Below, piece by piece: positions 5,330 through 64,000 of a stretch of 64,000 nucleotides of DNA. The notes beneath the pieces were generated by a model. The model was not told the DNA's origin. It saw only the letters and a list, made by a program, of their open reading frames with translations, and did not search any database. How positions within the stretch are numbered: position 1 is the first letter of the stretch; every line of letters begins with the position of its first letter. Source of the stretch: Eledone cirrhosa (Eukaryota); the NCBI GenBank assembly GCA_964016885.1, contig OZ024743.1, positions 359,848,001-359,912,000 of the forward strand, given 5' to 3'. Made by a program: the position numbers and the translations under genes.

Positions 5330-5355
5330 ATATATATATATATATAAGTTAAAAC

Positions 5356-17126: not shown

Positions 17127-17314
17127 GGGCGGTGAATTGGCAGTATCAGTAGAGGGTTGGACGCCATGCTTTCTAGCATAGTTACGTCCCTTTACAGTCT
17201 GAGTTCAAATCCCGCCTAGGTTAACTTTGCTTTTCATCCTTACGGGGTCGATAAAATAAAGTACCAGTAATGTACTGGGTAATTGCTGGCCTTGTGCCTA
17301 AAGTAGAAACAATT
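17127..17314 (+). mobile_element. tRNA-derived SINE
   Basis: GGGCGGTGAATTGGCAGTATCAGT..GAGTTCAAATCCC..GTAGAAACAATT. ATTATAACTATAA is repeated on both flanks. Confidence 0.9.

Positions 17315-19292: not shown

Positions 19293-19349
<57 letters not shown>

Positions 19350-20291: not shown

Positions 20292-20292
<1 letters not shown>
19350..20292 (-). mobile_element. 5'-truncated Tx1/L1-type LINE (ORF2 C-terminus + 3' UTR)
   Basis: zf-RVT-like CPRCAQGDETVLHALVQC; AATAAA then (TTA)n. Close paralog of 21775-22693; (AAT)n on both sides. Confidence 0.9.
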
Positions 20293-20348
<56 letters not shown>

Positions 20349-21724
20349 GGTTGATCAGAAGTGACGGGATCCAGATACCAACAGGTGAGATGATAAAGGA
20401 AATTGACTCTGAGGAAGGATACAAGTATTTGGGCGTTCTGGAGGCTGATGGCATAAAGAACAAAAAAATGAAGGAATTGTTAAGAACTGAATACATTCGG
20501 AGAGTAAGGAGCGTATTGAAGTCACATCTGAACAGCAGAAATGCCATAAGCGCAGTAAATTCCCGAGCTGTGTCTATTATTAGGTACAGTGCGGGAATTC
20601 TGAGATGGAATGTTGCTGAACAAAAAGAAATGGATAGGAAGACTAGGAAGCTATTGACTATCTACAACATGTTCCACAAGAGGAGTGATGTCGATAGACT
20701 CTACCTAAGGAGATCTGAGGGTGGAAGAGGTCTTATCAGCATAGAGGACTGTGTTCAGATGGAGAAAAACAACCTATACAAATACGTGACCTATAGTAAG
20801 GAGCCAATGCTCAGAGCTGTACTGAAGGAGGGGACAGTAGGCCAGGGGATACCCAAGGAGGAAATAACATCAAGGAGGAAGAGCAGCCTTAAGGGAAAAT
20901 CCCTTCATAGTACCTTCTTTGAGAAAACTGAATTTAGAGATCCACAGACATGGAACTGGTTGAGAAGAGGAGACCTCAAAAAGGCTACAGAAGGAATGCT
21001 AATGGCTGCGCAGGAGCAGGCCCTCAAAACGAAGTGGTTGAAGCACCATATCTACAAGGAGGAGGCTAGCCCACTGTGCAGGATCTGTGGAGAGAGAGAG
21101 GAGACTGTGGCTCACATTGTGTCCCAGTGTAAACACCTAGCCCAGACCCACTATAAGGGCTGGAGACACGATGTGATGGGCAGGGTGATCCACTGGCACC
21201 TATGCAAAGTAAACAATTTACCACATTCTGAGAAATGGTATGAGCATAGGCCAGAGGCGGTGATGGAGAACAATCAGGTGAAGGTGCTGTGGGATTTTAG
21301 GATACAGACGGACAAAAAACTGGAACACAATAGACCTGACCTGGTGGTTGTGGACAAAGAAAAAAGATCGTGTCTGATTGTGGATGTGGCCTGCCCGTTC
21401 GACACGAGAGTGCAAGAGAAGGAGAGGGAGAAAATTAACCGATACCAGGACCTAAAGTGGGAGGTGAAAAGGATTTGGAACTGCCATGAAGTCAAAGTGA
21501 TCCCGATTGTCATAGGCGCACTGGGGACTATCTCCAAAAGTTTCCAGGGATGGTTAAAGAAAATCGGCCCCTTCACGCTTTTTGGAACGCTTCAAAAGGC
21601 ATGCTTGCTTGGAACAGCAAGAACCCTCCGATACGTCCTGAATATCTGAGGCTGCAGGTAGTGGCTTGATATTCAATCCAACGGACTTTCCAGTTAACCA
21701 ACATCAATGACTGAGATTCAAGGA
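20349..21724 (+). mobile_element. 5'-truncated R4/Dong-type non-LTR retrotransposon
   Basis: Open frame 20351-21649: RT thumb, CRICGEREETVAHIVSQC, RHD, NRPDLVVVD..IVDVACP..EKINRY (RLE). Nearly identical to 28734-30109; (AAT)n on both sides. Confidence 0.93.
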
Positions 21725-21732
21725 ATAACAAC

Positions 21733-21775
<43 letters not shown>

Positions 21776-22019
21776 CTTTCTTTATTAACCACAAGGGTTT
21801 ACATAAAGTAGACATTAAGGACAGTACAGGACAATACAGGACGGTACAAATGGGCATTTCTGCGTGTAAAAAAAAATAGAGGATGTAATAAAAAGTAACA
21901 ATGAAAAATTCCCCAATAGGAGGGAGACTTCCGAGGGATATTTGTGGAGAAAGCTCATTAAAAGGCAACAGTGACCCTGACCACCAGGGCAAGTGCCCTC
22001 TCCCAGTTTTCGACCTTTG

Positions 22020-25000
22020 ATTTACAGACACACACTCGGGACATACTTGCTTCTCACACCCATCTTTCAACAACATGCTGGGAAGAGAGCATTTCCCTCT
22101 CTACCCTGATTTTCCTTTTCAAATGAAATTTGAAAAGGTTAATCAGGGCATTACCGAAGAGGTAAGTGCTCGTCTTCAGCCCTTTCAAACGTGTCCACCA
22201 TACTATCTCTTTCGCCATGGCCACCAGACAGATAAAAACTGCCTGCCCTTCCCAGCTAAAGGAAGAGGGCGGGGCAATCCTCACGATGGACTCAGCTGAT
22301 AGCTGGATCCGTCCTACACGTGACAGCAGGTGTTCGACATAAACCCACAAGTCAGCAATGCTCGGACACTGGACGAGCGCGTGCAGGACGGTTTCGTCGC
22401 CCTGCGCGCATCTCGGACATGCCCGGCTGACGGCACCTCCATGCCTGTAGATTTTATCCCGAACTGGCAAAGATCCTCGGTAGCACTGCCAGGCCAGGGA
22501 TTTCTGGAAGGTGTCCAGAGGCCCCGGTCCAAAAGTTCTTCCGAAGAGATTGGCTGGTTGATTTTCGTCGACGCCCAGAGTTTCTGCAAGTACGTCGTCG
22601 CTCTTCCACTCCACTAATCCTCTATAGAACGCCAAGGTGGAGTTTCCACCGATCACATTGCCCGATTGGTTGAGGGCTGTGAGCGCCTGAAGACATTCCA
22701 GTCTCCAAGCGCTCCCTCTCGTTCTTCGCTTGACCCAGGACTGTAGCTCCGTCAAGGAGACAAGCTGGGGAAAGATGCGTCTAGCAAACGGCAACCACAC
22801 CTGATCACCGTCGAGGAAGAGGTGGAGATGTCGTAGCCTGAGCGCGTGTCTGCGCATCATCAGCCACGGCATGCCCAGCCATCCACGTAGCGGGTGTTGA
22901 CAGCAGATGGACCGCCTGACCATCGGAGCGCGTCCCTTCCACAAAAAGCGAAAGAGCATACGCTCCAGCGCAGTCAGGCGGGGCTTAGGACAAGGTACGA
23001 CGGTCAGGAGGTAGTAGATGACGGACGCGATGTACGCGCTAGCCACCTCCGCTCAACCTTTCAGGGAGAGCTTCCTCTCCGTCCATATCTGGGTGAGTGA
23101 AGCCACCCTGCTCGTCATATCGTCCCAGTTTTTGTCCGTCAAGGTCCAGACCGAACCAGAACCCTAGCAATTTAACCAGTCCGTCCGTCCAGCGCCCGAC
23201 GACGCTGTTGGACGGCATGGACCTGCCTTTCCAAGTGCCGAACTGCAGGACCTCTGACTTTTCCTGGTTGATAATTGTTCCTGTCACCGCTTCGTATTCT
23301 CTTAGTGTAGTGTCGATCGCGTCGATGTGTTTGGCGTTCGACACCACTGCGGTAACATCGTCCGCTTATGCTGACACGGATCTTCCGCATTCTAGTTCGC
23401 GCGGGATCACCCTTAACGTCTCCAGTTGTACAGTAATGGCTCGAGAGTCAATACGTACAAGAGGGACGAGAGGAGACATCCTTGGCGGACCGAGCGCATG
23501 ATGTTGAACGGTTCTGAAAGGTGACAGTTCACTCTCACCACAGAGCAGATGTCCCTGTGCATGGCAGCGATCCAGCCTCTGAAGACGGGTCCAAAGCCAG
23601 CCGCCCTCAGGACTGCCGCTAGTTAACGATGGTCGACCATATCGAAAGCTTTCGACTGATCTAAATTGATCAAGGACCCACCCGTGCCAGGTTCCTTAGC
23701 AACCCTCTCCACGATGTATCGCATGAGGTGGAGATTGTCGTGGATGGATCTGTCGGGAATGGCGCATGTCTGCGCCTCTCCCACCAGACCACAAACGATA
23801 AGCGCCACTCTCTTTGCTAGAAACTTCGGCCAAAATCTTGAACTCTGTGTTTAGCAGAGTTATGGGCCTGATATTATCTATGTTATCCCCCCTTTTCGGA
23901 TCCTTTCTCAGCAGCGCCACAGCTCCTCGGCTCACAGAGCTGGGAATTCTCCCGTCCTGTTGCCAGTTGCAGTAGACGTCCGCCAAGAGGCCTCCGAACA
24001 AGTCTGGCATCTGTACGTAAAGTCATAGGGCAGACCATCCAAAACAGGCGATTTACCCCTTGTGCAGCCAGTCATTGCCTCCCGTACTTCAGCGGCTGTT
24101 ATCGACTTTTCGCAACACTCCGCCTCAGTGGCCGAGAGCCGCGGCGGTCCGTCGAAGTAGACACTAAAGTCCATCCCTCGATCCGGCCCGCCGCTGCCCC
24201 CGAACAGCTGAGCGAAGTATCGCTGAAAAGCTTCACACATTTGCCCGGGATCGAGTAGCATGCGCTCGTCGTGGTCCACCAAAGACCGGATCGTGGCTTT
24301 GTTGCCACGATGCGCCTCCACCACTCGCACCCATTGAACGGCTTTCGTCCCCTCGTGTCTGAGAGCACGCACCCTAGCTCTGACAACGCAGCTTTCGTGC
24401 TTTGCATTTAAGAATTGGTCAAGGGCCAATTTCGCCGCAAGTACGTCGGTCACGATGCCTTTGATAAGCGCCTCGTCTAATTTTCTAACTAGTTCTCCCT
24501 CTGCTAAAGCCTTACTATACCTAATGGCCTCTATTCTAATCGCTCTTTTCAGAGCAAACCACCACTTATTGTTGACGATGGCCCCCGTCAACGCCCGCTT
24601 AACTAGTTCGCTAATACGGTCTCTGTAGGCCTTGCGCGCTGGTTAGGACGCGTTCAGCTTCCAGTAGCCGGGTCCTCGTCTATGAAGCCTATGTAAATCA
24701 AGCACAGATCACGAATTTGTGGTCCGTGTAGCTGACTATCTTGAATTGGGGTGCCATTACTAGACCTATCTATTTCCCTACAAAATACTCTATCTACATA
24801 TGATCTGGATGACCCTATGCTGTTTTTCCAAGTCCACATTGGCACATTCTGGAAATCCAATCGGTACCTGTCAGACAGTTCGAAACGCCTGAGCAGGGTG
24901 GTGAGGCTCTTATACCCTCCTCCCCTATCCGCTAATCCCACGCAGTCCCAGCGTGCATCTAATATCCCGTTTCAGTCACCCACTAACACTAAAGAGCGGG

Positions 25001-25389
25001 ACGTTCCAAGAAAGGTCTCCAGACGCCGGAAGAAATCAAGCCGCCCTGCTGGGGAAAATGGCGACTAGCCTGAAAGCTTGCCCGTCTCCGCTGGTTACGT
25101 CCAGCACCACCATCTTACCTTCTGGGTCCAGGAAGTTGGCCCATATGGTGAGATCCAAACCTCTCCGAAAAAGCACAGCAACTCCTCCCCCCGATCCCGG
25201 ATGGCTGGGAGATGCGTACACATGGTACCCGCCGAAGATCGGTGCGAAGGCCCGTGCTTCGGAGATTCTGGTCTCGCTGATGACCACTACATCTATGTTT
25301 AGTAACATGAGGTCGTTGAGCAGGTGGCCCTGCTTCCAATACGACCCCAAGCCACGCGCATTTATGCTGCCTATTCTGAGTGAGGTCAT
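22020..25389 (-). pseudogene. Tx1 ORF2 (APE endonuclease, RT, zinc finger), disrupted
   Basis: LRIGSINARGL..VISETR; KSPVLDGLP; IRPITLLNTEFKIL; NLDQSKAFDMVDH; YADD motif mutated to stop-ADD; FLWKGR; CPRC..ETVLHALVQC. Spread over several frames. Confidence 0.9.
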
Positions 25390-25429
25390 GTTGAAATGGA
25401 GTGGAAAAGATGGGAAAGACCACTTACCT

Positions 25430-27355
25430 TACTTCTCGTAGAGGAAGGACGGTTTCTCCATCCTTTTCACTGCTTGTGGCCTCCTCAGGAAGGATGTCCT
25501 TATAAATCCTCATGGAGAGTGCTTGTCGGAAGTCTCCGATGTCTTTGGGGAATTTTTGTTTTAGTGTCATGTATGTTTACTGTGTGATGCGAATGATTTG
25601 TATGTGTGGAGGTGGTGTTAACTTTTGGGGTGTTGTGTAGTCTCTTTCTGTGATGCTGGTGTTGTGTTGGATGTAGTGTAATCATTGGTTGTTGTTCAAA
25701 TTTGATGCTGTGTAGTGTGTATCGTTTTGGTTGTTTTGTTTTGTTTGAGTTTGTTGTGGGTTTGTTTCTGTTTCGCTTTTTGGTGACTTATGCTGTGCTG
25801 GTGATGGTGGTGTTGGGGTTCATGATGGTGATGGTGTTGGTGTTTGGGGTGATGGGGTTGGTGATGCTGGTGTGGATGGTGGCGTATCTGTCCTAACTTT
25901 TTTGTTTGATAGTTTATTTGTTTTCCTCTGTATTTTGTTTTTGGAGGGGGAAGGAAGAGAATTTTTTTCTTTTTTGGTTTCTTTTTTTCTTTTTTCTTGA
26001 TACCGTTTCCCACTCCTCGTCGTCACAATCTGTCTCCAGTTGTGATAGGCCAGTGAGTGGAAAATCCTCCACAGGCGTTAGTTTTGGTTGTGGTGTGGTG
26101 GATGGAGTAGGCGCTGGTGCTAATTCTGGCGCGTTGGGTAGTGGTGGTATTGGTTTTCTACTGTTGCTGGGGTTGTTGCTGTTACAGTTGCTTCTGTTGT
26201 TGCTGCCATCTCTGCTGCTGGTAGTGTTGATGGTTGAGTCACTGGGGTGGATATGAGAGGTGGCCTCAACCTTTTAGCCTGAGGGCAGAAAGCCCTTAGG
26301 CGGGTTCCTTCACCACAAACTACACACCTAGGCCTTCTGCCCTCGACAATTACGGTGAGGTGGCTGCCGTCACTGAGGTCTATTACCTCTGGGATCTCCT
26401 CAATGCTTTTTGGTCCGCTTGGATCAGGAGCTCCATCCCAGATCCGGACCAGTTCTCCTGCGTTTCTTTCGCTATTTCGATTATCTTGGTGTTGGCTTCG
26501 ATACGGGCGAGGACGGCAGCTATTATCCAGGGAATTTCGATGGCCGGTGGAACGTGGGTTACCCTGATCTTTACGAGTCTCTGGCCACAATAGCTTGAGA
26601 CGAGTGTGAAGTCATCACTTCTTAATGGGGCCATGGAGTGTTCTCTAGCCTCCTCTGGTGTTTCAAAGAACACGTCCACGGTTCCATACTTCTGCCCACG
26701 TCTGATGTGGGTTTTTCTTTGCCCACACATGTCCCAAAGCGTTTTGGATTTGGGACTCGGATGCCCGTTCCACTCGGCGCGATTTTATGTTAATTGTTCG
26801 TTAAGACACGGTGGATAGGCGCCGATGATCCATTTTATTTGGTGGTGCTTGAGGCTGACCCTGTACCCATCTTTCTTTACCATTTTTTTGGCTTCTTCTA
26901 ATTTCTCCTGAGTTACCTGAAATGCTTCGCACTGTTTTGCTACTCTGGCAAAACTCAGGGTGGTTTTCTTAATGTCATTGTTGCTGTTGTTGTTACCGTT
27001 ATTTTTGTTATTATTCATTTTAGTTTCAGTTGTGGTGGTGGTGGCGTCAGTGGTGTTTGGTTTGGAAGAGTTCATTTCGGTGGAATTCATTTCGATATCA
27101 CGAGTAACTTTACTTTTTTCTTTTGTTTCTGTTGTCTCTGTGGTGGTGGTGTTGGTGGTGGGGGTTGTCGCTGTGGTGGTGGTGGCGACTTTAACACCTG
27201 CAGTCATTGGTAATGGCGGGAAATGAAGGTCTGCCTGAGACAAAAATATTGCTACTGCTTAAATTTTTAGTGTTGGCAAACGTTGTAATATTTACAATGG
27301 TGGTGTCGGTGTTAGGTGTTAGTTTGTGAGGAAGGTGTGACTCTAAGTCAGCCAT
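25430..27355 (-). pseudogene. Tx1 ORF1 (low-complexity, RRM-like, zinc knuckle), disrupted
   Basis: Thr/Asn-rich N-terminus, SFARVAK, YGTVDVFFETPEEA, VEGRRPRCVVCGEGTRLRAFCP (degenerate CCHC). Confidence 0.75.
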
Positions 27356-27582
27356 AATTTTTCAAAGAAATTTTTTTTTTGTTTGATAATTATAAAAAGT
27401 TTAAGTTTTGGGCTCCAGGCCCCAATATTTTTGAGTTTCCTTTTCAGAAATCAATGTATGTGCACTTATATACAGTTAACAATAAAAGTTTTCCATAAAT
27501 GGCAGTTTTAAACAACTGAAAATAACAAACCTATGCAGAGCTCACGATGATACGATTTACTACGTAGGTCGCCAATAATAAC

Positions 27583-27648
<66 letters not shown>

Positions 27649-27651
<3 letters not shown>

Positions 27652-27836
27652 TGTTTCTACTTTAGGCACAAGGCCAGCAATTAACCAGTGCATTACTGGT
27701 ACTTTATTTTCTCGACCCCGTATGGATGAAAGGCAAAGTCAACCTCGGCGAGATTTGAACTCATATCGTAAAGGGACGTAACTATGCTGGAAAGCATGGC
27801 GTCCGACCCTCCACCGATACTGCCAATCCACCGCCC
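27649..27836 (-). mobile_element. tRNA-derived SINE embedded in (AAT)n
   Basis: Full-length copy with A/B boxes; (AAT)n on both flanks. Confidence 0.92.
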
Positions 27837-27842
27837 TAATAA

Positions 27843-27902
<60 letters not shown>

Positions 27903-27904
<2 letters not shown>

Positions 27905-30107
27905 CCAGGCCCAGATGGTGTGCAGGGGTATTGGATTAAACATTTAACATCCCTCCACCCGAAGCTGACGGCCATGTTCAATGACTGCTTGGTGTCGGGT
28001 GAGGTGCCAGAGTGGTTGACAAAAGGTACCACAGTTCTGATAATGAAAGACCGAATCAAGGGTAATGATGTTAGCAACTATAGACCTATCACATGTCTGC
28101 CCGTAATGTGGAAACTGTTGACGAGCATTGTGTCTGAGGAAATCTACCATCACCTCCACACAAACAACTTGTTGCCGGACGAACAGAAAGGATGCCGAAA
28201 GAAGTCACGTGGTACAAAGGACCAGTTGCTTATTGATAAGATGGTAATGGGGAATTGCAGGAGGAGACACACTGATCTTGCCATGGGATGGATAGACTAC
28301 AGAAAGGCATTTGACATGGTGCCTCATTCCTGGATCACCAAAAGCCTGGAGATCTTCAGGGTGGCAGATAACATCAGACAGTTGCTGGGCAGGAGTATGG
28401 GGTCCTGGGAGACAGAGTTGACATCAACTGGAGTATCCTTGGGAAGCGTGAAGATCAAGAGAGGTATCTTCCAGGGAGATAGCCTGTCCCCTCTGTTGTT
28501 TGTCCTTGCCCTGATGCCCTTGACCATTATGCTGCGAAAAGTGAGAGCAGGATACAAGTTGGGAAGGGGAGAGCTTACCATCAATCACCTCCTCTTCATG
28601 GACGATCTTAAGCTCTTCGGGAAAAGTGAGAAGGAGTTGGATGTGCTTGTTGACACTGTCCGTATTTTCAGCAGTGATATATGTATGCAGTTTGGTATTG
28701 GTAAATGTGGAGTCATTGTGATGAGGAGGGGTAGGTTGAGCAGAAGTAACGGGATCCAGATACCAACAGGTGAGATGATAAAGGAAATTGACTCTGAGGA
28801 AGGATACAAGTATTTGGGCGTTCTGGAGGCTGATGGCATAAAGAACAAAAAAATGAAGGAATTGTTAAGAACTGAATACATTCGGAGAGTAAGGAGCGTA
28901 TTGAAGTCACATCTGAACAGCAGAAATGCCATAAGCGCAGTAAATTCCCGAGCTGTGTCTATTATTAGGTACAGTGCGGGAATTCTGAGATGGAATGTTG
29001 CTGAACAAAAAGAAATGGATAGGAAGACTAGGAAGCTATTGACTATCTACAACATGTTCCACAAGAGGAGTGATGTCGATAGACTCTACCTAAGGAGATC
29101 TGAGGGTGGAAGAGGTCTTATCAGCATAGAGGACTGTGTTCAGATGGAGAAAAACAACCTATACAAATACGTGACCTATAGTAAGGAGCCAATGCTCAGA
29201 GCTGTACTGAAGGAGGGGACAGTAGGCCAGGGGATACCCAAGGAGGAAATAACATCAAGGAGGAAGAGCAGCCTTAAGGGAAAATCCCTTCATAGTACCT
29301 TCTTTGAGAAAACTGAATTTAGAGATCCACAGACATGGAACTGGTTGAGAAGAGGAGACCTCAAAAAGGCTACAGAAGGAATGCTAATGGCTGCGCAGGA
29401 GCAGGCCCTCAAAACGAAGTGGTTGAAGCACCATATCTACAAGGAGGAGGCTAGCCCACTGTGCAGGATCTGTGGAGAGAGAGAGGAGACTGTGGCTCAC
29501 ATTGTGTCCCAGTGTAAACACCTAGCCCAGACCCACTATAAGGGCTGGAGACACGATGTGATGGGCAGGGTGATCCACTGGCACCTGTGCAAAGTAAGCA
29601 ATCTACCACATTCTGAGAAATGGTATGAGCATAGGCCAGAGGCGGTGATGGAGAACAGTCAGGTGAAGGTGCTGTGGGATTTTAGGATACAGACGGACAA
29701 AAAACTGGAACACAATAGACCTGACCTGGTGGTTGTGGACAAAGAAAAAAGATCGTGCCTGATTGTGGATGTGGCCTGCCCGTTCGACACGAGAGTGCAA
29801 GAGAAGGAGAGGGAGAAAATTAACCGATACCAGGACCTAAAGTGGGAGGTGAAAAGGATTTGGAACTGCCATGAAGTCAAAGTGATCCCGATTGTCATAG
29901 GCGCACTGGGGACTATCTCCAAAGGTTTCCAGGGATGGTTAAAGAAAATCGGCCCCTTCACGCTTTTTGGAACGCTTCAAAAGGCATGCTTGCTTGGAAC
30001 GGCAAGAACCCTCCGATACGTCCTGAATATCTGAGGCTGCAGGTAGTGGCTTGATATTCAATCCAACGGACTTTCCAGTTAACCAACATCAATGACTGAG
30101 ATTCAAG

Positions 30108-30109
<2 letters not shown>
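27903..30109 (+). mobile_element. R4/Dong-type non-LTR retrotransposon, 5'-truncated at RT domain 0
   Basis: Starts at PGPDGVQGYW directly after (AAT)n. ~75 bp 3' UTR runs into (AAT)n(AAG)n. Confidence 0.95.
27920..30034 (+). CDS. Reverse transcriptase + CCHC finger + restriction-like endonuclease (uninterrupted 704 aa, lacks N-terminus)
   Basis: NYRPITCL, WIDYRKAFDMVPH, RGIFQGDSLSP, HLLFMDDLK, YKYLG, CRIC..ETVAHIVSQC, RHD, RPD..D..EK..Y. Confidence 0.92.
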   Translation: MQGYWIKHLTSLHPKLTAMFNDCLVSGEVPEWLTKGTTVLIMKDRIKGNDVSNYRPITCLPVMWKLLTSIVSEEIYHHLHTNNLLPDEQKGCRKKSRGTKDQLLIDKMVMGNCRRRHTDLAMGWIDYRKAFDMVPHSWITKSLEIFRVADNIRQLLGRSMGSWETELTSTGVSLGSVKIKRGIFQGDSLSPLLFVLALMPLTIMLRKVRAGYKLGRGELTINHLLFMDDLKLFGKSEKELDVLVDTVRIFSSDICMQFGIGKCGVIVMRRGRLSRSNGIQIPTGEMIKEIDSEEGYKYLGVLEADGIKNKKMKELLRTEYIRRVRSVLKSHLNSRNAISAVNSRAVSIIRYSAGILRWNVAEQKEMDRKTRKLLTIYNMFHKRSDVDRLYLRRSEGGRGLISIEDCVQMEKNNLYKYVTYSKEPMLRAVLKEGTVGQGIPKEEITSRRKSSLKGKSLHSTFFEKTEFRDPQTWNWLRRGDLKKATEGMLMAAQEQALKTKWLKHHIYKEEASPLCRICGEREETVAHIVSQCKHLAQTHYKGWRHDVMGRVIHWHLCKVSNLPHSEKWYEHRPEAVMENSQVKVLWDFRIQTDKKLEHNRPDLVVVDKEKRSCLIVDVACPFDTRVQEKEREKINRYQDLKWEVKRIWNCHEVKVIPIVIGALGTISKGFQGWLKKIGPFTLFGTLQKACLLGTARTLRYVLNI

Positions 30110-30155
<46 letters not shown>

Positions 30156-31149
30156 GAAGAAGAAGAAGAAAAAAAGAAGAAGAAGACGCACGTGGTGGAT
30201 AGAAGGTCATGAAATCGCTCCCTTAAGTATTTGATTTTTAACATATTCAAAACAATTGTGATATAACAATTCTTAGTACAAATGATACATAAAGCACCAG
30301 ACTCAACTCTCAGAAAATTCGGATCCACAATATTCTGTTATATCGCTCAATTATTCAATTTTGTATTATAAATTTTATATTCAAAAAAGAAAATGGTTAT
30401 AAATGGAGGAAAAAAACCCCTCTGTCTACACTATATAGAACAGCCAAATAACAGCAATTTCACCAACACCACAAACTAGATACACCACCTATCCCATCAC
30501 CCCTCTGTGTACACTAAATACAACAGCCAGATAACGGCAATTTCACCACCACCACCACCAATCCCAGCATAATAATAATAATTACTATTATTATTGTCTA
30601 AAGTTTTCACAAAATGTTTAATTCCAATATTAAGAATATATGTCAACACATATATTAAACATACCGACAAACCACAATGATACACAGAAAAAAAAAACTA
30701 CAGTCTATTCAACAAAACTCAGTAACGACAACGACATCGCTAAAGTCACCGCCGCCACCACTCCATCCATCATTGCTACCACTATCCCATCACCACCGCC
30801 ACCACTCCTTCATTGCTATCACCACTATTCCCCCATTACTTTCTGTTAACTTAAGAAAGGGGAAGGTGGCGGTATCACTAGACAAGGGAGAGGCTAGCAA
30901 AAGATATCAATAGATTGACTTAGTGACCCGGCCACCGACCAAACGTCAACGACTATGGCACTGCTGGCTCCCGCCTTCCCCACCAACAATAGAGAAAGCC
31001 CCAGCTCCACCACCGACATAGCCAACAACAATAACAGGCAACCTCAGCAAAAAGTATATTATATTATTAATAATAATTTCATTCTTAAGCCACGCAATAC
31101 TCACATTAAGGAACCACTCATGATAATAACAATTTAAAATAACAACAAA

Positions 31150-42672: not shown

Positions 42673-42888
42673 TGGTTTCTGATTTAAGCATAAGACCAGC
42701 ATTATGGAGTGAGGGGATATTCGATTAAATCGACCCCTGCACGTGACTGGTACTTTATCTTATCGACCCAGTTAGGATGAAAGACAAAAATAACCTCGGT
42801 GGGATGTGAACTCAGAATGTAAAGGGCTGTAACTCAATGCCGCAAAGAATGTTGTCCAAAGCCCTATCGATACTGCCAAACCACAGCC
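42673..42888 (-). mobile_element. tRNA-derived SINE, divergent subfamily
   Basis: A/B-box head and TCGACCC/GGTACTTTAT body with a longer 3' segment; (AAT)n tail. Confidence 0.8.
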
Positions 42889-42899
42889 ATAATAGTATT

Positions 42900-44140: not shown

Positions 44141-44750
44141 ATATTTACCCCAGTGTGTAAATTAACGCGTTCAGATTCAATGTTGTATGCTGTTACTCGA
44201 TCTGCCAGAAAAGCAACTAAATATTCAAATCAAAATACAGTCTCAAGAAACAGAAACACACATGCATTGCTTGATGTATACACACATGAAATAATGATCG
44301 CTGCAATTGATTTGATCATATTCAACCTGAGTTTAAATAAAAACAACCACAAAAACAACTACAGCAGCAACAAAGACAAAAGCAACAATATTATTAAGTG
44401 GGTGCATTAATTTTAATAAGATATATGTGGAAGTTAAATGCAATGACAGCCATAAGGGGGTCACATTTAAAAAAAGAAATCTAAAATAGAATCCTGTTTC
44501 GTTCAGTAACGAAACAAGTGATAAGAGATAATGTATGATAACAAAAGAATATGTCGAACAATGTATCAGGTGAAAGATGTATCCAGGAATACAAAGGTGA
44601 GCGTGCCATGCTTCAAGGCAATGGAAAAGCGTGAAAAAGTGTGAATAGATATGATATGTAATAAAGAGAAGATATAAAGGAAATCATATTTTAATTGTCA
44701 TTCTATTCCTAATCGCCATTTTTCGTGTTCATAATCATCATTATTATATG

Positions 44751-44930
44751 ATGGATTGGCAGTATCGGTAGAGGGTCGGACGCCATGCTTTGACGCATTG
44801 AGTTCGGCCCTTGCCATTCTGAGTTCAAATCCCGCCGAGGTTAACTTAGCCTTACGGGGTCGATAAAATAAAGTACCAGTAATGCACTGGATAATTGCTG
44901 GCCTTGTGCCAAAAGTAGAAACAATTATTA
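44751..44930 (+). mobile_element. tRNA-derived SINE
   Basis: TGGCAGTATCGGTAG A box, GAGTTCAAATCCC B box, ATTATTAT tail. Confidence 0.9.
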
Positions 44931-45559
44931 TAGGATTGAGTATACTCGAATGTTGGATTATAGGTGAGGATTTAAACTTTAGTGACGCAAAAAGTATATT
45001 TAGGAGTTGCAGCGTATTATTTGAACGCTATAACGAAACCACAACTATGGTCGCCAGCATTATGGATATAAGTTATAATACGTCTAATGAGGTGGTAATC
45101 CTTGCCATTAGCTTCTGGAATGTCTCTCCTGCGAGTGTCACTGTTGATATATGGATATCTGTTTTGCTACTTCCCATAGCTTCACCTGTAACACAAGCCT
45201 CGGATGCTATGGGGTGCTATTTTTGCCAAAGAGCAGCCTGTTTGGTCCCGCACGGCCTATTTCTATACGCACCATTGGCCTCCTATATCTAGAGGTAAGA
45301 AATAATCAGAAAATTAAATTTAAAATATTTCTAGTATAGTCAAAGTTGTTATAGACATGTAATTCAAACAATGAACTCTATCAGGAACAAGGAAGGCTAA
45401 ATGGTCATTTGGTTACGTAGACCTCGGATTCTTCTATCCTCTACCCGCCTGGCTTCCCGCTAAGATAAATATTCAACTTGTTCAACTAAACCAATCAATC
45501 AACCAATCAATACAGCAGCAGCAGCAGTAGTATAGGTAGTATTTATAGCCTAAAATTAC

Positions 45560-50167: not shown

Positions 50168-50576
50168 ATATAATATAAAACGAAAAATCAGTTATGCATC
50201 GGGACTAAATGTATTGTGTATTACAATTGTTTCGCCGGCAGACAGCTCGAGACACGATCATTGTATGGATCTGTCTGATTCTAGAACTGCAGGTTCGTCG
50301 ACACTTCCAATAATTTCGGAACACATTTTCCAACTGGGGTTTTAGCTTCAAAAAACATCTTCCTTGCTTGTCCTGCTGTTGGCTGTTCTTTTTCTACGTC
50401 ATCATACATTCTGGCCAATAATTGCTGCCAAACTGTTCATCAGCTACTCCTCGTCCGACACACTTCAATGAATTCATGCCGGCTTTGGCATTTCACAAGT
50501 CACTCACACACACATATACACAGACATACACACAGACATATATACATATATACATACACATATACACACACACGCG

Positions 50577-51924: not shown

Positions 51925-53305
51925 ACACACGCCTACGCTTATAAACACATAAAAACAATAAAATAAATATACAATATATTAAAATATGCATATAACGTCA
52001 CATAGAGATATATAAAAAAAAGAGAGGAGAAAGGAGAAGGTATGTGTATGCGTGTAATATAGTACGTATGGGGAGTATAATGTGCACACTTAGGTCTGTG
52101 TACGGAACAAATAATGTGTTCCAAAATGGAACACATGGGGAGTATGTATTCACGATTGAAAAGGTACACATGCATGGGGGCGCGTAGCCCGGTCATATTG
52201 GGGTCTGCCACTGTGGTTGAGGTGTGTTGTCCTATAGGTGCAAAGTACCTGACTGAGTGACCGTGGCATCCGGGTCAACCTGGCTAAGTACAGGCGATGT
52301 TCCTGCCTAGGGTGACGTGCAGAGTCGGGTATGCATCTTGGGATATTTTGGTTTACCCCACGGGGCATATAATGTCATCAGCGTATGGTGTCCGATACCT
52401 TGAACCCGTTTCGTCGATCTGGTCGGCGCGTACTCCGCCGCATGCTCTTAGCCTGGGCTTCCCGTGGGATTCCATGCGGAGAGTGTGCACATTCTCTGGT
52501 GTCTGCAGGTCATGATAATTTCTGATTTCAGGTTGACCGCTTCATCCTTCAGTCTGACTATTTCCATGGACTCGTATAGGTATAAGCTACATTTTCTACT
52601 TCCAGCCGAGTATGCATTCGCATGCCGAACGATACTCCAGTCAAGGGCGTACGGGTGCTTTTGACTTTCAGGTCCTACACCAGGTCCGCTAGCTTAGTGG
52701 AGTGCATCTTGCTTCGGTTCTTGACATCCACGATTAAAGGGCGTGGATGTTGCGCGGATGTAGGTGCGCTTTACATTGTGGGTGCTAACAACACATTTGT
52801 ATACCAGGCCCTTCGTCAGGCATTTTCCCTGTAGGGGGAACTGGGTGCACACTCTGCAGTTACAAATTCTGTTGTTATTTTGTTCGCTTCGCACGCCTGG
52901 CCCTAGATCTGCTATGGCCCTCTCACGATTCTCAGGGTGTTGTTCCGGCGGCTCGGTGATCTCCCCCTTGCCACTCGTTGCCACCTGGCCGCCTTCCGCG
53001 GCGGCCGTGTATGGATATATGAATTTGGTTACATTGTTTATATTCGTGCAAGTATAACAGGATGCATCCTTTCATGGATAACCCTGTATGACCTTTTGTG
53101 CAGATTTATATGACTGTGAGTATATCACATTTGAGTACGAACAGAGATATAAGTGTAAGTGTATGTATTTTTGTGGAATGTATATGGGCACGCAGGTATC
53201 TGGGCGCGTATTTGTTTGAATGTTTATGTGTGTGTGTACGTGCACCTAAAACAGGCTAACGATTGCTGGTGAGTACGTGTATGTGTACGTACATATACAC
53301 ATATG

Positions 53306-53342
<37 letters not shown>

Positions 53343-54100
53343 ATGTGTTTGTGTTGGAAGTGTGTCTGTCTTTGTGGCTCTTTGTACGGACAGGCGTGTG
53401 TATGTGTGTGTGCGTGTCTATGTATATGTCTGTACGTGTTTGTGTATATGAGTAGATGTACGCGTACGCATGTGTGTGTCCTTGTATGCGTGTGCTTGTG
53501 TGTGTGTGCGTGTGCGTGCGTGTCAGAGCTCTTGTACGAGGGCATGTAGACAGGCGCCTGTTGACGCGTATGTTGTTAGTTATATGGTCGTGAGCGTGTG
53601 TATATGTATATGAGATAGTGTGTGTGTATATGTATATGGGTGTGTATATGTACATGTGTGCGTATGTATATATATATGTATATATGTATGTGTGCGCGTG
53701 TGTGTATATGTGTATGTATATATGTATATGTGTGTGTGTGTGTATGTGTGTGTGTGTGTATGTGTGTGTGAGTGACTTGTGAAATACCCAGCATGAATTC
53801 ATTGAAGTATGTCGGACGGAGAGTAGCTATGGGCAGTATGGCAGCAATTATTGGTCAGAATTTATGATGACGTAGACAATAACAGCCAACAGCAGGACAA
53901 GCGAGGAAGATGTTTTTTGAAGCTAAAACCCCAGTGAGAAAATTTGTTCCGAAATTATTGGAAGTGTCCGATGAACCTGCAGTTCTAGAATCAGACAGAT
54001 CCATACAATGATCGTGTCTCGAGCTGTCTGCCGGCGAAACAATTGTAACACACAATAAATTGAGTCCAGATGCATCACTGATTTTTCGTTTTATATTATA
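50168..54100 (-). mobile_element. Penelope-like insertion: truncated minus-strand copy (50168-53010) plus inverted pLTR (53030-54100)
   Basis: CNCRVCTQFPLQGKCLTKGLVYKC..TYIRATS at 52694-52984. 50168-51290 and 53030-54100 are reverse complements. Same family as 5940-8545. Confidence 0.88.
53964..54051 (+). ncRNA. Hammerhead-like motif, CCGAUGA core variant, 61 nt stem II region
   Basis: GTGT-CCGATGA(53968-53974)..CAGACAG/CTGTCTG helix..GAAAC(54036-54040)-AATT-GTA^-ACAC. Confidence 0.55.
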
Positions 54101-57805: not shown

Positions 57806-57928
57806 TTACAGTGGTATCATTTATAAAAATCATTATTTAAATTACACCGCCAAATGTTTGAAATTACGCCATATATATATATATATATATAGAAAGATTT
57901 GAATGGATACAGTTTAGTTGAAAGGAAT

Positions 57929-58048
57929 TTATTGACACGTGTTTCTATAACAGTTACATAACCTAAAACAGCTGCTATCTACAAACTTTTAGTTATGCAG
58001 ACATTCAATATTTCAATGTTATTATTTACTGTCATTTCATCAGAATAA
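57929..58048 (-). ncRNA. Hammerhead ribozyme (inverted pLTR copy)
   Basis: Reverse complement of 59073-59192. Confidence 0.7.
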
Positions 58049-58130
58049 TATTACTGAGGACCTATTTAGTTTTTATAGAGAATATTAGGAGGGAGGGGTG
58101 AAGTTGTTAGAGGAATAAAGAACTAAAACC

Positions 58131-58450
58131 CGTCACAGAACTAAAACCCTTTTTTCCCACTACAAGCCGAATATTACATAAAAGAGGGACATCCCCCAAC
58201 TATATAAACCTTAATCTAGTTAGAAAAATATAAAAACAATCTCTTCTCAACATATATTAATAACCTTAAATTACCACACTAATAATGGAAAGATATGCTG
58301 ATGAGAATAGGTACAAATATGCGATAATGAATGTGTCTAAAAACGTCCATAAGTATGTATATATATGTGAAAATGTATATAAATAAGTAAATATATATAT
58401 ATATGTTTGATGTGTATAGTTAGATGTAAGTGTATTCATGTATTAAAGTG

Positions 58451-58501
<51 letters not shown>

Positions 58502-59347
58502 ATGTATATATGTGTATATGGATGTGTATGTATGTGTATGTGTGTACACATGGACTAGAGTATGTATGTATATATGTGTGTGTCTATACGTGTGTATATA
58601 AAGATAAGTTGAGTATGAAAATGTATACACATGAGCGCGTATGTATGTACATGAATACATGTGTGTATATATATGTGTATGCATGTGTATATATATGTAA
58701 GTATGAATATGTGAATTGTGAGTATATGTATTTTGTAGAGGTGTGCAAATATATTTGTTTGTGAATGCGTGGGTGAAAGGATACGTACACTTGAAAGAAA
58801 AATTTAAGTCTGAACGTTAATTAAGTGCAAACACAAAACCAACCACGCATATCTTTACTATCTCTACTATCTCTAATCCTTCTATAGATTTAGAAAAATA
58901 ACCAATAATATATTCTATAAAAAATGTCAAAACAACAGATGGGAATCTAATTACTCACTGCCACCAAGAATTCTCACTGCTATCGAGAAACCACTCCTTC
59001 AACTATTCTTCTAACAACTTCACCCCTCCCTCCTAATATTCTCTATAAAAACTAAATAGGTCCTCAGTAATATTATTCTGATGAAATGACAGTAAATAAT
59101 AACATTGAAATATTGAATGTCTGCATAACTAAAAGTTTGTAGATAGCAGCTGTTTTAGGTTATGTAACTGTTATAGAAACACGTGTCAATAAATTCCTTT
59201 CAACTAAACTGTATCCATTCAAATCTTTCTATTTTTCTCCGGATTACTTTTGGAACTACAACTGGAACCGTCGAGCAAACTCTACGTGAGCTGATAATCT
59301 ACTGTGTGTAATATTTATATTACAACACAACGGAAAATACTGTATAT
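58131..59347 (+). repeat. 5' pseudo-LTR
   Basis: Direct repeat of 61667-62889; begins with the last codons of the ORF, as expected for pLTRs. Confidence 0.92.
59073..59192 (+). ncRNA. Type-I hammerhead ribozyme with 91 nt branched stem II
   Basis: TTATT-CTGATGA(59078-59084)-A-ATGACAGT..ACTGTTAT-A-GAAAC(59176-59180)-ACGT-GTC^-AATAA. Confidence 0.72.
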
Positions 59348-59396
59348 TTACCTCCTGTAAAGTCGAGCAACCCACACAGCAAACGCAACCACAACA

Positions 59397-61744
59397 ATGG
59401 AAAAACACTACCTGGATATGTCACTCAAAAACATACCAACCCAAGGTAGAAAGGAATATTTATTGAGTATGATTCAAAAAACTAATGAATTCATTCGACG
59501 TGTCAGGTGGAAAACGCTCCACTATGATAGAAGCCGTATGAACTCAACATTAGAAAGTGGTGTAAACAACAAATTCGGTTTTAGGACTTGTAAAAACCCA
59601 CCCACCAACCCACTATTAGATGCATTTGAGCAGGACCTTATGAACTTAATCCTTAAAATTAAATTCAAAGGACGCAACACCAACAGCAAATTACAGAAAG
59701 ATATAAAAAAACTACTGGACGACCTTAAAAACACCAAAGGAATTGTAGTAAAAGCGGACAAAACATCAAACCTGTACACTATGGATTGCACTACATACAA
59801 CAACTTCATTCGAAAAGAATTACATAAAAAATATAGAAAAACGAGTGAAGTAACCCTTAAGCACATCAATGATGAGGCATGCGAAATAGTGAAAAATCTC
59901 GGAATCGAAGATAGGACAGGACCACTCTTACCGGCGGTACCCACCTTCAATCTTAAGAACCACAAGTTAACTTTGATAATGACCCTAAAATTAGATTAAT
60001 CTGCCCCTCTAAATCAGATATAGGTAAAATAAGCAAATATATCTTAGATAGAATCATCCCCCAAATTAAGGCTAAGGTTAACATTAAACTCTGGGGGAAG
60101 ACCCAAGAAGCAATAAGATGGTTTAATAGCATTAGCAATAAGAATAAATCTAAGTTTATCCAGTTTGATATCGATGAATATTACTCATCGATATCACCTG
60201 AAACTTTGAATAGAGCCATTAAGTTTGCTAAGGATAACTCTGACCTTACAAACGACGAAATTAAGATTATATTAGAAGCTAGGAAAACTATAGTCAAATT
60301 TGAGAACAGTTATTGGGTACGTAAAGATAGACCCTCTAACTTTGACATAACAATGGGCTCTAACGATTCGGCGGAAATAACTGATATTGTGGGGTTATTT
60401 ATCGCCTTTAGACTCCAGGAAAAATTCAGCAATCTCCACGGCGGAATATACCGCGACGATGTTCTCCTCCTAGCTAAAAACCTTAATAACCAAAAACTAG
60501 AAAAACTACGCAAAGATATAAGAAAACTACTACTCGAAATAGGACTAACTATAACATATGAATACAACCTTAAAGTAGTTAACTTCCTGGATGTCACACT
60601 CAATTTAAACTCTGGTTTGATTAAACCGTTTCATAAATTGAATGAAAATCTCAAATACGTAAATGTTGGGTCTAACCACCCCATCTCTATAATTAAATCT
60701 ATCCCTAAAAATATTTCCCTTAGAATCTCGGGTCTATCTTCTAACATACAAGTATTTAAGGAACACGCCGAGTACTACGATAACGCCCTTAGTAAAGCAG
60801 GCTACCTCAACAAAATAGAGTACATAGATGGGAACAATCAAAACACCCAAAATAAATCCCACATCGGTAGATATAATAACACAACACCAAACCACACTTA
60901 CTACCATAGTATGCACACCAGTAAACCAACAAACAAAACTAATAGAAAGCGATGCAAAGAGTACTTATGGTATAACCCCGAATACAATAGTTCCATTAGT
61001 ACAAATTTACCAGTACTCTTCTTTAAAATAATTAAAAGACATTTTCCCACATCACACAAATACCACAAAATCCTAAACCCTACCACTATAAGACTGTCAT
61101 ACTCTACAGCGTTAAACCTTGAACAACACATAAAAAAGATCAATACTAGAAGGTTAAACGAAAACACTAAGAACTTAAGTACAAAGAACACAAAAAAAAC
61201 AGTAAACAATACACTACAGAACATAAATAAACCACACCTAAGTTCGTCCGCAATACTACTCCAGAGAAAACCCAACGTACACAACTGTAACTGCACCTAT
61301 CCTGACAACTGCCCCCTCGGCAATAACTGCCTGGAAAAAAATATTATTTATAAGTGTACCATTAAATCCGGAGGCAACGAGTGGTATTACGTAGGATCAA
61401 CGGCAACATCGTTTAAATCTCGATTGTATAGGTATTCTTACTCAATAAAACACCAGAGCCAAAGAAATGTAACAACTTTAGCAGAAAAAGCTTGGACGCT
61501 CAGGGATAGCGATCAAAGGTTTACCCTAAAATGGGAAAAATTAGCTAAAACCCAAAGCTTTTCCAGGAGCCAAAATTTCTGCAAATTGTGTAATCTTGAG
61601 ATTTATTACATAATCACACACAAGAAGAAACTGCTGAATAACAGAATTGAACGAACATTATTCTGCCGTCACAGAACTAAAACCCTTTTTTCCCCACTAC
61701 AAGCCGAATATTACATAAAAGAGGGACATCCCCCCACTATATAA
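59397..61744 (+). CDS. PLE polyprotein (RT + GIY-YIG endonuclease), one frameshift near 59966
   Basis: SLKNIP..FIRRVRWK, VKADKTSN, NLKNHK/NF..PKIRLICP, QFDIDEYYSSI, FDITMGSNDSAE, IYRDDVL, NFLDVTLNL, YVNVGSNHP, WYNP, CNCTYPDNCPL, IIYKC..YVGST..FKSR, CKLC, CRH. Confidence 0.9.
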
Positions 61745-61971
61745 ACCTTAATCTAGTTAGAAAAATATAAAAACAATCTCTTCTCAACATATATTAATAA
61801 CCTTAAATTACCACACTAATAATGGAAAGATATGCTGATGAGAATAGGTACAAATATGCGATAATGAATGTGTCTAAAAACGTCCATAAGTATGTATATA
61901 TATGTGAAAATGTATATAAATAAGTAAATATATATATATATGTTTGATGTGTATATTCATGTATTAAAGTG

Positions 61972-62044
<73 letters not shown>

Positions 62045-62882
62045 ATGTATATATGTGTATATGGATGTGTATGTATGTGTATGTGTGTACACATGGACTA
62101 GAGTATGTATGTATATATGTGTGTGTCTATACGTGTGTATATAAAGATAAGTTGAGTATGAAAATGTATACACATGAGCGCGTATGTATGTACATGAATA
62201 CATGTGTGTATATATATGTGTATGCATGTGTATATATATGTAAGTATGAATATGTGAATTGTGAGTATATGTATTTTGTAGAGGTGTGCAAATATATTTG
62301 TTTGTGAATGCGTGGGTGAAAGGATACGTACACTTGAAAGAAAAATTTAAGTCTGAATGTTAATTAAGTGCAAACACAAAACCAACCACGCATATCTTTA
62401 CTATCTCTACTATCTCTAATCCTTCTATAGATTTAGAAAAATAACCAATAATATATTCTATAAAAAATGTCAAAACAACAGATGGGAATCTAATTACTCA
62501 CTGCCACCAAGAATTCTCACTGCTATCGAAAAACCACTCCTTCAACTATTCTTCTAACAACTTCACCCCTCCCTCCTAATATTCTCTATAAAAACTAAAT
62601 AGGTCCTCAGTAATATTATTCTGATGAAATGGCAGTAAATAATAACATTGAAATATTGAATGTCTGCATAACTAAAAGTTTGTAGATAGCAGCTGTTTTA
62701 GGTTATGTAACTGTTATAGAAACACGTGTCAATAAATTCCTTTCAACTAAACTGTATCCATTCAAATCTTTCTATTTTTCTCCGGATTACTTTTGGAACT
62801 ACAACTGGAACCGTCGAGCAAACTCTACGTGAGCTGATAATCTACTGTGTGTAATATTTATATTACAACACATCGGAAAATA

Positions 62883-62889
<7 letters not shown>
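61667..62889 (+). repeat. 3' pseudo-LTR
   Basis: Direct repeat of 58131-59347. Confidence 0.92.
62616..62735 (+). ncRNA. Hammerhead ribozyme (3' pLTR copy)
   Basis: CTGATGA 62621-62627, GAAAC 62719-62723, ACGTGTC^AATAA. One A>G change in stem II converts A-U to G-U. Confidence 0.72.
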
Positions 62890-62949
<60 letters not shown>

Positions 62950-62952
<3 letters not shown>

Positions 62953-64000
62953 AATGAATAATGACAGGTAGACATCATAAAAAGGTAATTTATTCCGTGT
63001 CCTTACAAGTGTTTCCACGGTGGTACTACAGCCTAGTTATGCTATGTGCAAATTCACAGGTACTTGCAGAACTCAAATATCCAATGCTGTGAACACTGTT
63101 TCCTCAGAGCAGAATGGTAAAATGTACAATGTAAATACCATTAAGTGGGGTTGTTGGGGAAGATAGAGTAGAAAAGGAAGAGAGAAAAGTAGGGGAGAGG
63201 GAGAGAGAGAGAAAGATATGCAGGGATTGGAGAAGTAGGAGAGAGGGTTTGTAGATATCTTAATCAAAATGTTATGGTAGGGGTTTTATTATACTGGTTA
63301 CTTTTGGAGAGATGCGTTGATAGTTAAGGTCGGAATTATTTATTGCCCCAGAGGGCAGGTTCATAGATGTTGAGAGGGAAGTAGGCCAAAGGCGAGAGAG
63401 AGAGAGAGAGTGTAATGGATGTAGAGAGAGAGGTAGAGAGGGGACAGACGAAGTTTGGTGGTGAGTGAACTTTGGGTTTGTAGTAGTAATCTAGGAATTG
63501 CACTGAGTTACCATTTATAGTGATAAGCAGTGTATTGTCTTGTAGTGTGGGGGGAAGAGAAGGTGGTTAGCTAGAAAGCGGTGTTATAGTTACGGGTTCG
63601 AATGTTAAGTTATTTTATAGTGAGAGAATTTAGCTTTTAGTTTGTGGTTGCAGTATAATGATCGTTCAATTCTATCGTTAAGTAGTTTGTTTTTGGATTT
63701 TAATATGTAAAAGAGCTCAAGGTTACATAACCTGCAGTACTTCAATCCACACCGATATGCACTAGCGCTGGAAAGTATATCCCATTTTAAGGTGAACTGT
63801 TGGTTGTGTTCACGGAGTTGCCAGGTCTTGTTGGCGAGCGTGGTCACAAAACGGTGATTATGATGTTTGATTGAGAATCGATGACGGTACCAGCGAGATT
63901 TAAACGAGGTGGTGGTAGACCGCTATAATACCATTTCCGGTCGTTCGATTCAACCGTGCATTGGTAAACAATGTTGGACTTTAGGCATTCATTCTTCAAT
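62950..64000 (-). mobile_element. 3' end of another Penelope-like element (runs off window)
   Basis: CLKSNIVYQC..FKSRWYRH..TTLANKTWQL..CRLCNLE..LLNDRIERSLYCNHK. Hammerhead-like motif at ~63000-63111. Confidence 0.88.
63000..63111 (-). ncRNA. Hammerhead-like motif with 85 nt stem II, partly degenerate
   Basis: Minus strand CTGAGGA-A-ACAGTG..CACCGT-G-GAAAC-ACTT-GTA^-AGGAC, then AATAAA. Stem I is imperfect. Confidence 0.5.

Follow-up and report, generated by a model that had tools for sequence, protein, structure and literature searches.

Hammerhead motifs with long stem II arms in terminal repeats of Hydra-clade Penelope-like retrotransposons from Eledone cirrhosa

Does a sequence in which the two catalytic boxes of a hammerhead lie 91 nt apart still belong to the hammerheads of Penelope-like elements (PLEs), and what might the RNA between the boxes be for? 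The question is raised by positions 59073-59192 of a 64,000-nucleotide stretch of the Eledone cirrhosa genome, referred to below as the window. The first-pass annotation had listed six such sites, and all of its coordinates and spacer lengths (91, 91, 91, 78, 85, and 61 nt) were correct. All six motifs are real; the list omits a further family, termed E below (4794-4917), and two degraded copies of family D. The three 91-nt sites are likewise present and come from one young element, 57929-58048 being its inverted copy at the 5' end.

The family A hammerhead and its host element

The 91-nt sites belong to an element of family A, which comprises the following features in the window:

59073-59192, +: type-I hammerhead in the 5' terminal repeat (descriptor match, covariation)
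59073-59077 with 59188-59192, +: stem I, five A-U pairs
59078-59084, +: core box CUGAUGA
59085-59175, +: stem II arm of 91 nt, one irregular hairpin by predicted folding
59086-59093 with 59167-59174, +: stem II pairing
59099-59103 with 59159-59163, +: next helix of the arm, with a middle helix beyond
59104-59158, +: conserved twin 3x3 loops
59104-59106 opposite 59156-59158, +: proximal loop
59116-59118 opposite 59144-59146, or 59147-59149 in another register, +: distal loop
from 59119, with 59138-59143, +: distal helix
59176-59187, +: GAAA box, palindromic stem III (ACACGTGT), and GUC triplet
62616-62735, +: second hammerhead, lying 3543 nt downstream within the 3' terminal repeat
57929-58048, −: third hammerhead, inside the 5' inverted segment 57889-58117
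58130-59350, +: 5' direct repeat (partner 61666-62893)
59397-61744, +: Hydra-clade RT-EN reading frame with RWK, DKT, and CxCx5C and without CCHH, by translation

Within 59073-59192, stem I is followed by CUGAUGA, the 91-nt spacer, GAAAC, ACGU, GUC, and the second strand of stem I, and the cut site is predicted after 59187. The CUGANGA and GAAA boxes and an NUH triplet thus occur in the order that marks a type-I hammerhead. Across 11 families, the catalytic boxes and the triplet displayed 85.5% and 100% identity, values that derive partly from the selection of matches. As the conservation check proposed in the first-pass annotation required, the cores were far more conserved than the 5' flank, which was at shuffle level (42.8% versus 38.5–42.3% in shuffled sequence, with 0 invariant columns). 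The arm retained 8 invariant columns, compared to 0 in three shuffles, and the 3' flank retained 3. A G10.1-C11.1 pair at the base of stem II was not a constant feature: the first pair was A-U in 9, U-A in 6, C-G in 3, and G-C in 1 of 21 rows, and was often C-G in the D type. Since this position also varies among published Hydra hammerheads (PMC8557442, File S2), the missing pair lowers the expected rate and leaves the identity of the motif unaffected. Searches against Rfam yielded no match up to E 10 for 59000-59350, no hammerhead among the 150 of 183 matches listed for the window, and 0 matches at gathering score in 13 loci. As short-arm Hydra hammerheads among these loci were missed as well, the blank result does not discriminate. 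Sequence and predicted structure place the long-arm motifs among the dimeric type-I hammerheads found in PLE terminal repeats, and they are predicted to act like them as well.

The Hydra clade has been defined by RWK and DKT motifs, a CxCx5C linker, and a GIY-YIG-type endonuclease lacking CCHH (PMC8557442). All of these were found in family A translations, with the endonuclease at the C-terminus, and the protein has 41 homologues at 28–42% identity. The reading frame in the window carries a frameshift near 59970; in other copies it is open over 785 residues. Insertion into (TA)n, terminal direct repeats, and an inverted 5' segment (57889-58117 in the window) likewise agree with the clade. The one deviating feature is the hammerhead itself: the long families carry arms of 75–104 nt in place of the canonical short stem II, which is present in sister families (20–38 nt) and in metagenome relatives. 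Pfam gave no match for two reading frames examined. The host elements are Hydra-clade Penelope-like retrotransposons with the motifs sitting in their terminal repeats, and the earlier assignment of expanded hammerheads to CxCx5C elements is supported. The terminal repeats are long and full of microsatellites. Family A is very young, since 40 of 40 scored full matches, among 810 candidates, were identical.

The window also contains other repeats. A dispersed 200-nt SINE-like repeat occurs at 5323-5550, 10405-10632, 17108-17322, 27616-27855, 42735-42897, and 44739-44932, and elsewhere it has inserted into two hammerhead arms (L299, L303). Within 19300-30158 there are several LINE fragments encoding RVT_1 and zf-RVT domains, among them two near-identical pairs (99% and 91%).

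Abundance, spacer lengths, and origin of long arms

Further hammerheads and remnants of their host elements were located in the window:

3157-3263, +: family B hammerhead with a 78-nt arm (79 nt in most copies), twin-loop clade
1862-2232: family B endonuclease remnant
63000-63111, −: family C hammerhead with an 85-nt arm, twin-loop clade
63623-63999, −: family C endonuclease remnant
53964-54051, +: family D hammerhead with a 61-nt arm and one A.G/R.A loop, separate lineage; an inverted copy
52481-52882, −: endonuclease remnant of the family D source element
50218-50305, −, and 5978-6077, −: degraded family D copies
4794-4917, −: family E hammerhead with a 95-nt arm and a three-way junction, separate lineage
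13368-13412, +: short-arm hammerhead with 18 nt between the core boxes, the comparison case of the first-pass annotation

Each of families B, C, and D has its own Hydra endonuclease remnant upstream in the window. The protein link is weakest for family E, in which a Hydra endonuclease stands at a fitting distance in one locus (L052) and an upstream match was obtained for 2 of 26 copies. Its three-way junction displays compensatory changes, as judged by eye. The stem I mismatch of the family C copy in the window is absent from the other 6 copies.

In the 3.0-Gb genome, the pattern CTGAWGA-N70-100-GAAAC-NSSN-GTH had 4543 matches compared to 53 for the reversed pattern, indicating that the long-spacer motif is not a product of chance. 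In 80 evenly spaced 10-kb stretches (800 kb), the descriptor matched 80 times, against 2 in reversed sequence. Spacers measured 6–20 nt in 33 of these matches, 21–30 nt in 15, 31–45 nt in 14, 46–60 nt in 7, 61–75 nt in 4, 76–90 nt in 3, 91–105 nt in 3, and more in 1; a few long singletons in this sample and in the long-fold set are probably chance. Families were also sampled protein-first by a CxCx5C-PL codon pattern (29261 genome matches versus 970 in the control), because a protein search of the genome returned near-identical copies only. The Hydra families obtained in this way had spacers of about 12, 13, 20–23, 26–27, 30–32, 36–38, 54–56, 61, 75–91, 95, and 99–104 nt. Spacer length is continuous from 13 to over 100 nt, and the discrete class of expanded hammerheads proposed earlier dissolves into this range. 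A pattern with 40–69-nt spacers (21294 versus 1317 matches) was rejected as a hammerhead count, since it is inflated by the RT coding stretch of another retroelement, which made up about one third of 100 listed rows; this stretch (L162-L167 and similar) mimics the core with a 54-nt spacer and represents a trap for descriptors. In two Hydra groups the hammerhead was not located, as their repeats ran into gaps or past the stretch examined.

The range of lengths is also specific to the lineage. Among 79 metagenome Hydra loci, 54 had a sense-strand match, and 62 of the 65 matches had spacers of 12–29 nt. The three outliers lie within the reading frame or far outside, at loci that also hold a 25-nt hammerhead. 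No match was obtained in the other 25 loci, whose contigs are often short. A search of the 79 loci with a covariance model of the long arm gave no long match (best score 25.3 bits). Hammerhead counts in animal genomes are bounded by the length that a descriptor admits, and the stem II domains found here form a natural series running from 13 to over 100 nt.

Several other families and arrays were noted during this sampling. One Hydra family with a U3-A8 core variant and a 54–56-nt arm (L267, +, approximately 7070-7170; L135, L265, L266) has a long stem III that is almost self-complementary and could close within a monomer, and a short-arm U3-A8 family occurs at L291. In another Hydra family, represented by element 3' ends (L271, L254, L272), the core reads CAGAAGA (U4 to A) in 3 of 3 copies and the stems are otherwise intact. 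A sister of the 99–104-nt family (L261, L262, L264) has an internally repetitive 3' repeat of more than 3 kb, and its hammerhead was not reached within the stretch examined. An 83–88-nt GC-rich arm with a predicted multi-branch fold (z −4.4) and a CUCGAG palindrome occurs at L136-L138, L143, and L419, with no Hydra protein within 1.5–3 kb upstream. Very abundant retrozyme-like tandem arrays (L094, L099, L103, L129, L208-L220) consist of units of approximately 310 nt and 430–480 nt, each with a hammerhead of 14-nt spacer.

The relationships of the families were inferred from a maximum-likelihood protein tree (LG+G4) of 46 rows, 15 of them less than half filled, drawn from the genome and metagenome relatives only, with 14 of the 79 metagenome loci as outgroup. 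L294, whose arm belongs to the twin-loop (A/B/C) clade, was left out. All 32 genome rows grouped together (support 100/99). Families A, B, and C formed one clade with six further families (100/100), and family E was placed among families with 26–38-nt arms (100/100). Arms of at least 60 nt require most simply 5 changes on this tree, and at least 3 are forced by well-supported branches. A single clade of all long arms was rejected (p-AU 0.0015), a test that was chosen after the tree had been seen and that uses arm length as its label. The tree alone does not separate gain from loss; at least three separate gains are favoured, because all outgroups have short arms and each long lineage has a different fold. 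Further long families fold in yet other ways.

Arm structure, predicted cleavage, and a possible role of the loops

The arm of family A is predicted to form a single long irregular hairpin that continues stem II (−26.8 kcal/mol). Its distal TCTGCA/TGTAGA helix had a pairing probability of 0.98–1.0 in 18 of 19 family A variants. The sub-helix TGCATAACTAAAA/TTTTAGGTTATGTA named in the first-pass annotation had a pairing probability of about 0, and natural deletions remove it and spare the distal helix. Nor does the term 'split' hammerhead fit, as this would call for unrelated intervening sequence and the arm is a continuous covarying hairpin. The notion of four unrelated families with one architecture gives way to a homologous arm shared by A, B, and C, a separate arm in D, and the three-way junction of E.

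When 21 members of the A/B/C clade were aligned by sequence only, two conserved 3x3 loops emerged, the proximal reading Y-AUU opposite UAG-R and the distal G-ARU opposite YAG-C. Both follow the letter scheme A.G / R.A or U-A / U.Y, and they are 11–12 nt apart on the 5' strand and 9–10 nt on the 3' strand, corresponding to about one helical turn. In the proximal loop, A.G was present in 20 and U.Y in 21 of the 21 rows; in the distal loop, A.G was present in 18 and U.Y in 20. For 12 of the 21 rows, the fetch pattern itself had demanded the distal YAG (7375 versus 111 matches), which makes the conservation of this strand circular in part; the pattern did not include the other three loop strands. 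Among 18 further copies from other loci, chosen by a model trained on the 21 rows, A.G was found in 17 distal and 14 proximal loops. The D lineage has one similar A.G/R.A loop (A.G in 17 of 24 rows, G.A or A.A in 22 of 24). By eye, the loops have no counterpart in E or in the 84-, 95-, and 99–104-nt families. A kink-turn or SECIS core was considered and rejected: such cores consist of tandem 5'-GA/5'-GA sheared pairs, and the loops read 5'-AG/5'-AG, which is the opposite order.

Pairing was evaluated on structures drawn by hand from the same sequence-only alignments, since RNAalifold recovered only stem II in the twin-loop set and no structure in the D set. In the twin-loop clade (n = 21, about 11 related subfamilies, so that cells are not independent events), 84.6% of the cells of 25 drawn pairs were paired, with 107 two-sided changes, compared to 31–39% paired in slid controls. 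Pairing, two-sided changes, and the covariation score were each reached by 0 of 500 shuffles; two of the five measures, both pair counts, were reached by 71 and 39 of 500. For the D type (n = 24), 81.1% were paired and 0 of 500 shuffles reached any of the five measures. The covariation called for in the first-pass annotation was observed: two-sided changes occurred in 4 of 5 stem I and 7 of 8 stem II pairs in the twin-loop clade, and in 4 of 5 and 7 of 7 in the D type. Folding z-scores of the arm had a median of −2.5 in the 21 twin-loop rows, with 13 at or below −2; folding was weaker in the D lineage (median −1.4). A joint within the arm was found in none of four runs of unspecified kind over all contigs, which weighs neither way.

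Might these arms merely be tolerated? The second loop of a dimeric hammerhead could accept any self-folding extension, and arms could have lengthened repeatedly in a large, repeat-rich genome with selection acting on a stable hairpin only. A.G and U.U are favourable mismatches under thermodynamic rules, so the loops could persist for folding alone, as non-canonical pairs without a partner. The continuous spacer lengths, the at least three and most simply five tree changes with different folds, and the long, microsatellite-rich terminal repeats all agree with such growth. On the other hand, the same mismatch letters are kept at two positions while the 5' flanks are at shuffle level and helix pairs swap freely, stability alone would be served by Watson-Crick pairs, and a similar A.G/R.A loop is found in the separate D lineage. 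We regard tolerated growth as possible and, on this balance, unlikely.

Contacts of the loops with other RNA, namely stem I and its flanks or the arm of the partner, would offer protein-free, faster dimer cleavage and substitute for the loop I–loop II contact of fast natural hammerheads. Peripheral contacts between stems I and II do speed natural hammerheads (PMC3088659, PMC4209133), and an AAUAAA-like tract follows stem I in most families. Yet stem I has approximately 5 bp without a paired extension, the loops lie 13 or more bp out on the arm, and the column pairs listed contain no covarying run between the arm and the stem I flanks, making this explanation improbable. The AAUAAA-like hexamer itself lies 0–10 nt past the cut site in most families (59188-59193 in family A, overlapping stem I) and is a possible polyadenylation signal coupled to the ribozyme.

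The conserved YAG-R could also be read as a spliceosomal 3' splice site whose use would excise either a piece of the arm or the ribozyme's 5' half. In most rows the proximal UAG is followed by a purine, a GT...AG pair within the family A arm would leave a short canonical stem II, and PLE introns beside hammerheads are known, the intron of Drosophila virilis Penelope abutting the hammerhead (PMC4209133). We consider splicing highly unlikely, as the donor GT is not conserved across families, several families are purine-rich before the AG, a second YAG lies 10 nt upstream, and the D lineage has GAG at the corresponding place; moreover, the positions preceding the AG change in concert with those opposite, the Y-R pair being present in 21 of 21 rows (U-A 13, C-G 8).

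Stem III is palindromic in most families, with AAUU, ACGU, AUAU, and GUAC as variants related by compensatory change, which upholds the minimal palindrome described earlier except in family C, where a non-palindromic ACTT was seen in all 7 distinct copies. The stem comprises 2 bp and is nearly invariant (outer pair A-U in 19 and G-C in 2 of 21 rows; inner pair complementary in 18 of 21, one G-U). PLE hammerheads have been reported to cleave weakly, and as dimers (PMC4209133; for dimer cleavage also PMC6765202), and the palindromic, unstable stem III that distinguishes them was found here in most families, family C being an exception. The monomer core fold is predicted to lie 4.6 kcal/mol above the minimum-energy fold, and pairing of one stem III strand with another is predicted to give an intermolecular duplex of 8 bp (−10.3 kcal/mol). 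From the palindrome, the unfavoured monomer core, and the predicted duplex, cleavage is likely to need a dimer.

Of 64 ends counted in family A copies, 29 fell sharply at 59232 and 30 at 59350. These positions lie 45 and 163 nt downstream of the predicted cut, and we infer that they are the start sites of reverse transcription; they match the initiation at two sites described for PAc (PMC11167929). With both starts mapping 3' of the arm, priming does not take place at the arm itself. The suggestion that the insert is a separate RNA module gains support from the two conserved internal loops, which the first-pass annotation had not noted. The tail between the starts (59233-59350) measures 118 nt and has predicted hairpins. 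Of 39 family A copies that span the whole frame and reach the upstream repeat, 30 read on past the cut site, and 1 of 21 5' truncations within the interval examined fell at the cut site. With no pile-up of family A copy ends at this position, there is no genomic trace of cleavage, and the continuation of inserted copies past the cut indicates a template that is uncut or re-ligated, as has been reported for PAc.

The missing pile-up would also fit a catalytically dead motif whose hammerhead-like fold is retained only as a binding scaffold, as would the PAc hammerhead mutants that still insert in vitro and the lack of PAc RNA reads ending at the cut site (PMC11167929). The catalytic boxes, the NUH triplet, and the palindrome are nevertheless retained, with the identities and the selection effect given above, and a dead scaffold appears very improbable.

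We favour a reading in which PLE hammerheads carry long covarying stem II arms, probably cut only as dimers, and use the twin loops to dock the RT-endonuclease of the element; as a whole, it may be right or wrong with about equal chance. Docking, a likely step, is suggested by the protein-dependent PAc hammerhead, the read-through copies, and the two loops on the same face of the helix. In PAc, the one PLE studied with purified protein, the hammerhead cleaved only when the protein was present, and a protein dimer was predicted (PMC11167929). In the favoured sequence of events, the monomer would be inactive, its core fold being disfavoured as given above; two hammerheads would pair via their stem III palindromes; the protein, docked on the two loops that share a helix face, would keep the dimer together or set its timing; and the cut would be made late, or the cleaved RNA would be re-ligated into a circle, so that the integration template would stay continuous. 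A contrary point is that transposition does not depend on any such loop, given that the loops are absent, by eye, from other long arms and that Hydra families with short arms abound.

A stronger version, in which the twin loops, one helical turn apart, form a purpose-built docking site for the telomerase-like RT-endonuclease of the element as a dimer, the ribozymes are protein-gated, and arms were invented repeatedly, is tentative, and we rather doubt it. If true, natural ribozymes would exist that cleave only as part of an assembled transposition particle. A single animal lineage would then have evolved such control domains several times independently, in the form of long arms, and standard searches would have overlooked extended hammerheads in the tens of thousands. 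PLEs keep hammerheads that barely cut alone; one study found that protein is needed, and no binding site is known. The young family A provides a well-delimited RNA feature that lies apart from the catalytic core and can be mutated, and its short-arm sisters are natural controls, so that protein-assisted cleavage is directly testable.

Comparison with known systems

Among the closest known systems are the Hydra-clade PLE hammerheads (Craig et al. 2021, PMC8557442, File S2), which share the type-I topology, the CUGANGA and GAAA cores, the short palindromic stem III, the position in terminal repeats, the CxCx5C/RWK/DKT protein, and insertion into (TA)n. By our count, the Hydra rows of File S2, including Hydra-1_oBim, have approximately 12–26 nt between the core boxes, whereas protein-linked families here have up to 104 nt with internal loops or junctions. 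The minimal, dimeric PLE hammerheads (Cervera and de la Pena 2014, PMC4209133) are likewise similar in their unstable palindromic stem III implying dimer cleavage, in a proximal helix II of 7–8 bp that is longer than canonical, and in the unpaired base opening stem II. The example descriptor of that study allows at most 7 bp in stem II and at most 10 nt in loop 2, and its available part describes no distal domain; long arms cannot be found under these caps, as the first-pass annotation had anticipated for length-limited descriptors. An enlarged loop 2 (approximately 47–54 nt, counted here) also occurs in Selaginella PLE-X1 hammerheads of the Chlamys group (PMC8557442, File S2); these are two isolated, shorter cases from another clade, marked as deviating, for which that table gives no structure or conserved loops.

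PAc (Frangieh et al. 2024, PMC11167929) resembles family A in having a hammerhead upstream of two internal reverse-transcription starts that define a tail, and in that uncleaved RNA appears to be the template. It differs in belonging to the Poseidon clade, and the available part of that study mentions no extended arm; the Penelope tail measures 30–40 bp, compared to the 118 nt of family A.

The mammalian Clec2 discontinuous (split) hammerhead is of type III, with stem I interrupted by hundreds of bases. It shares the long stretch between the core halves; here, in contrast, it is stem II that is lengthened, and its helix runs on without interruption.

A search of article texts and some of their supplements, outside subscription journals and Repbase, took in PMC10085705, PMC6962438, PMC3088659, and preprint 10.64898/2026.07.22.740005 and turned up no account of extended arms or twin loops. 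Type-I PLE hammerheads themselves are known, and the long-arm hammerhead is apparently an undescribed variant of them.
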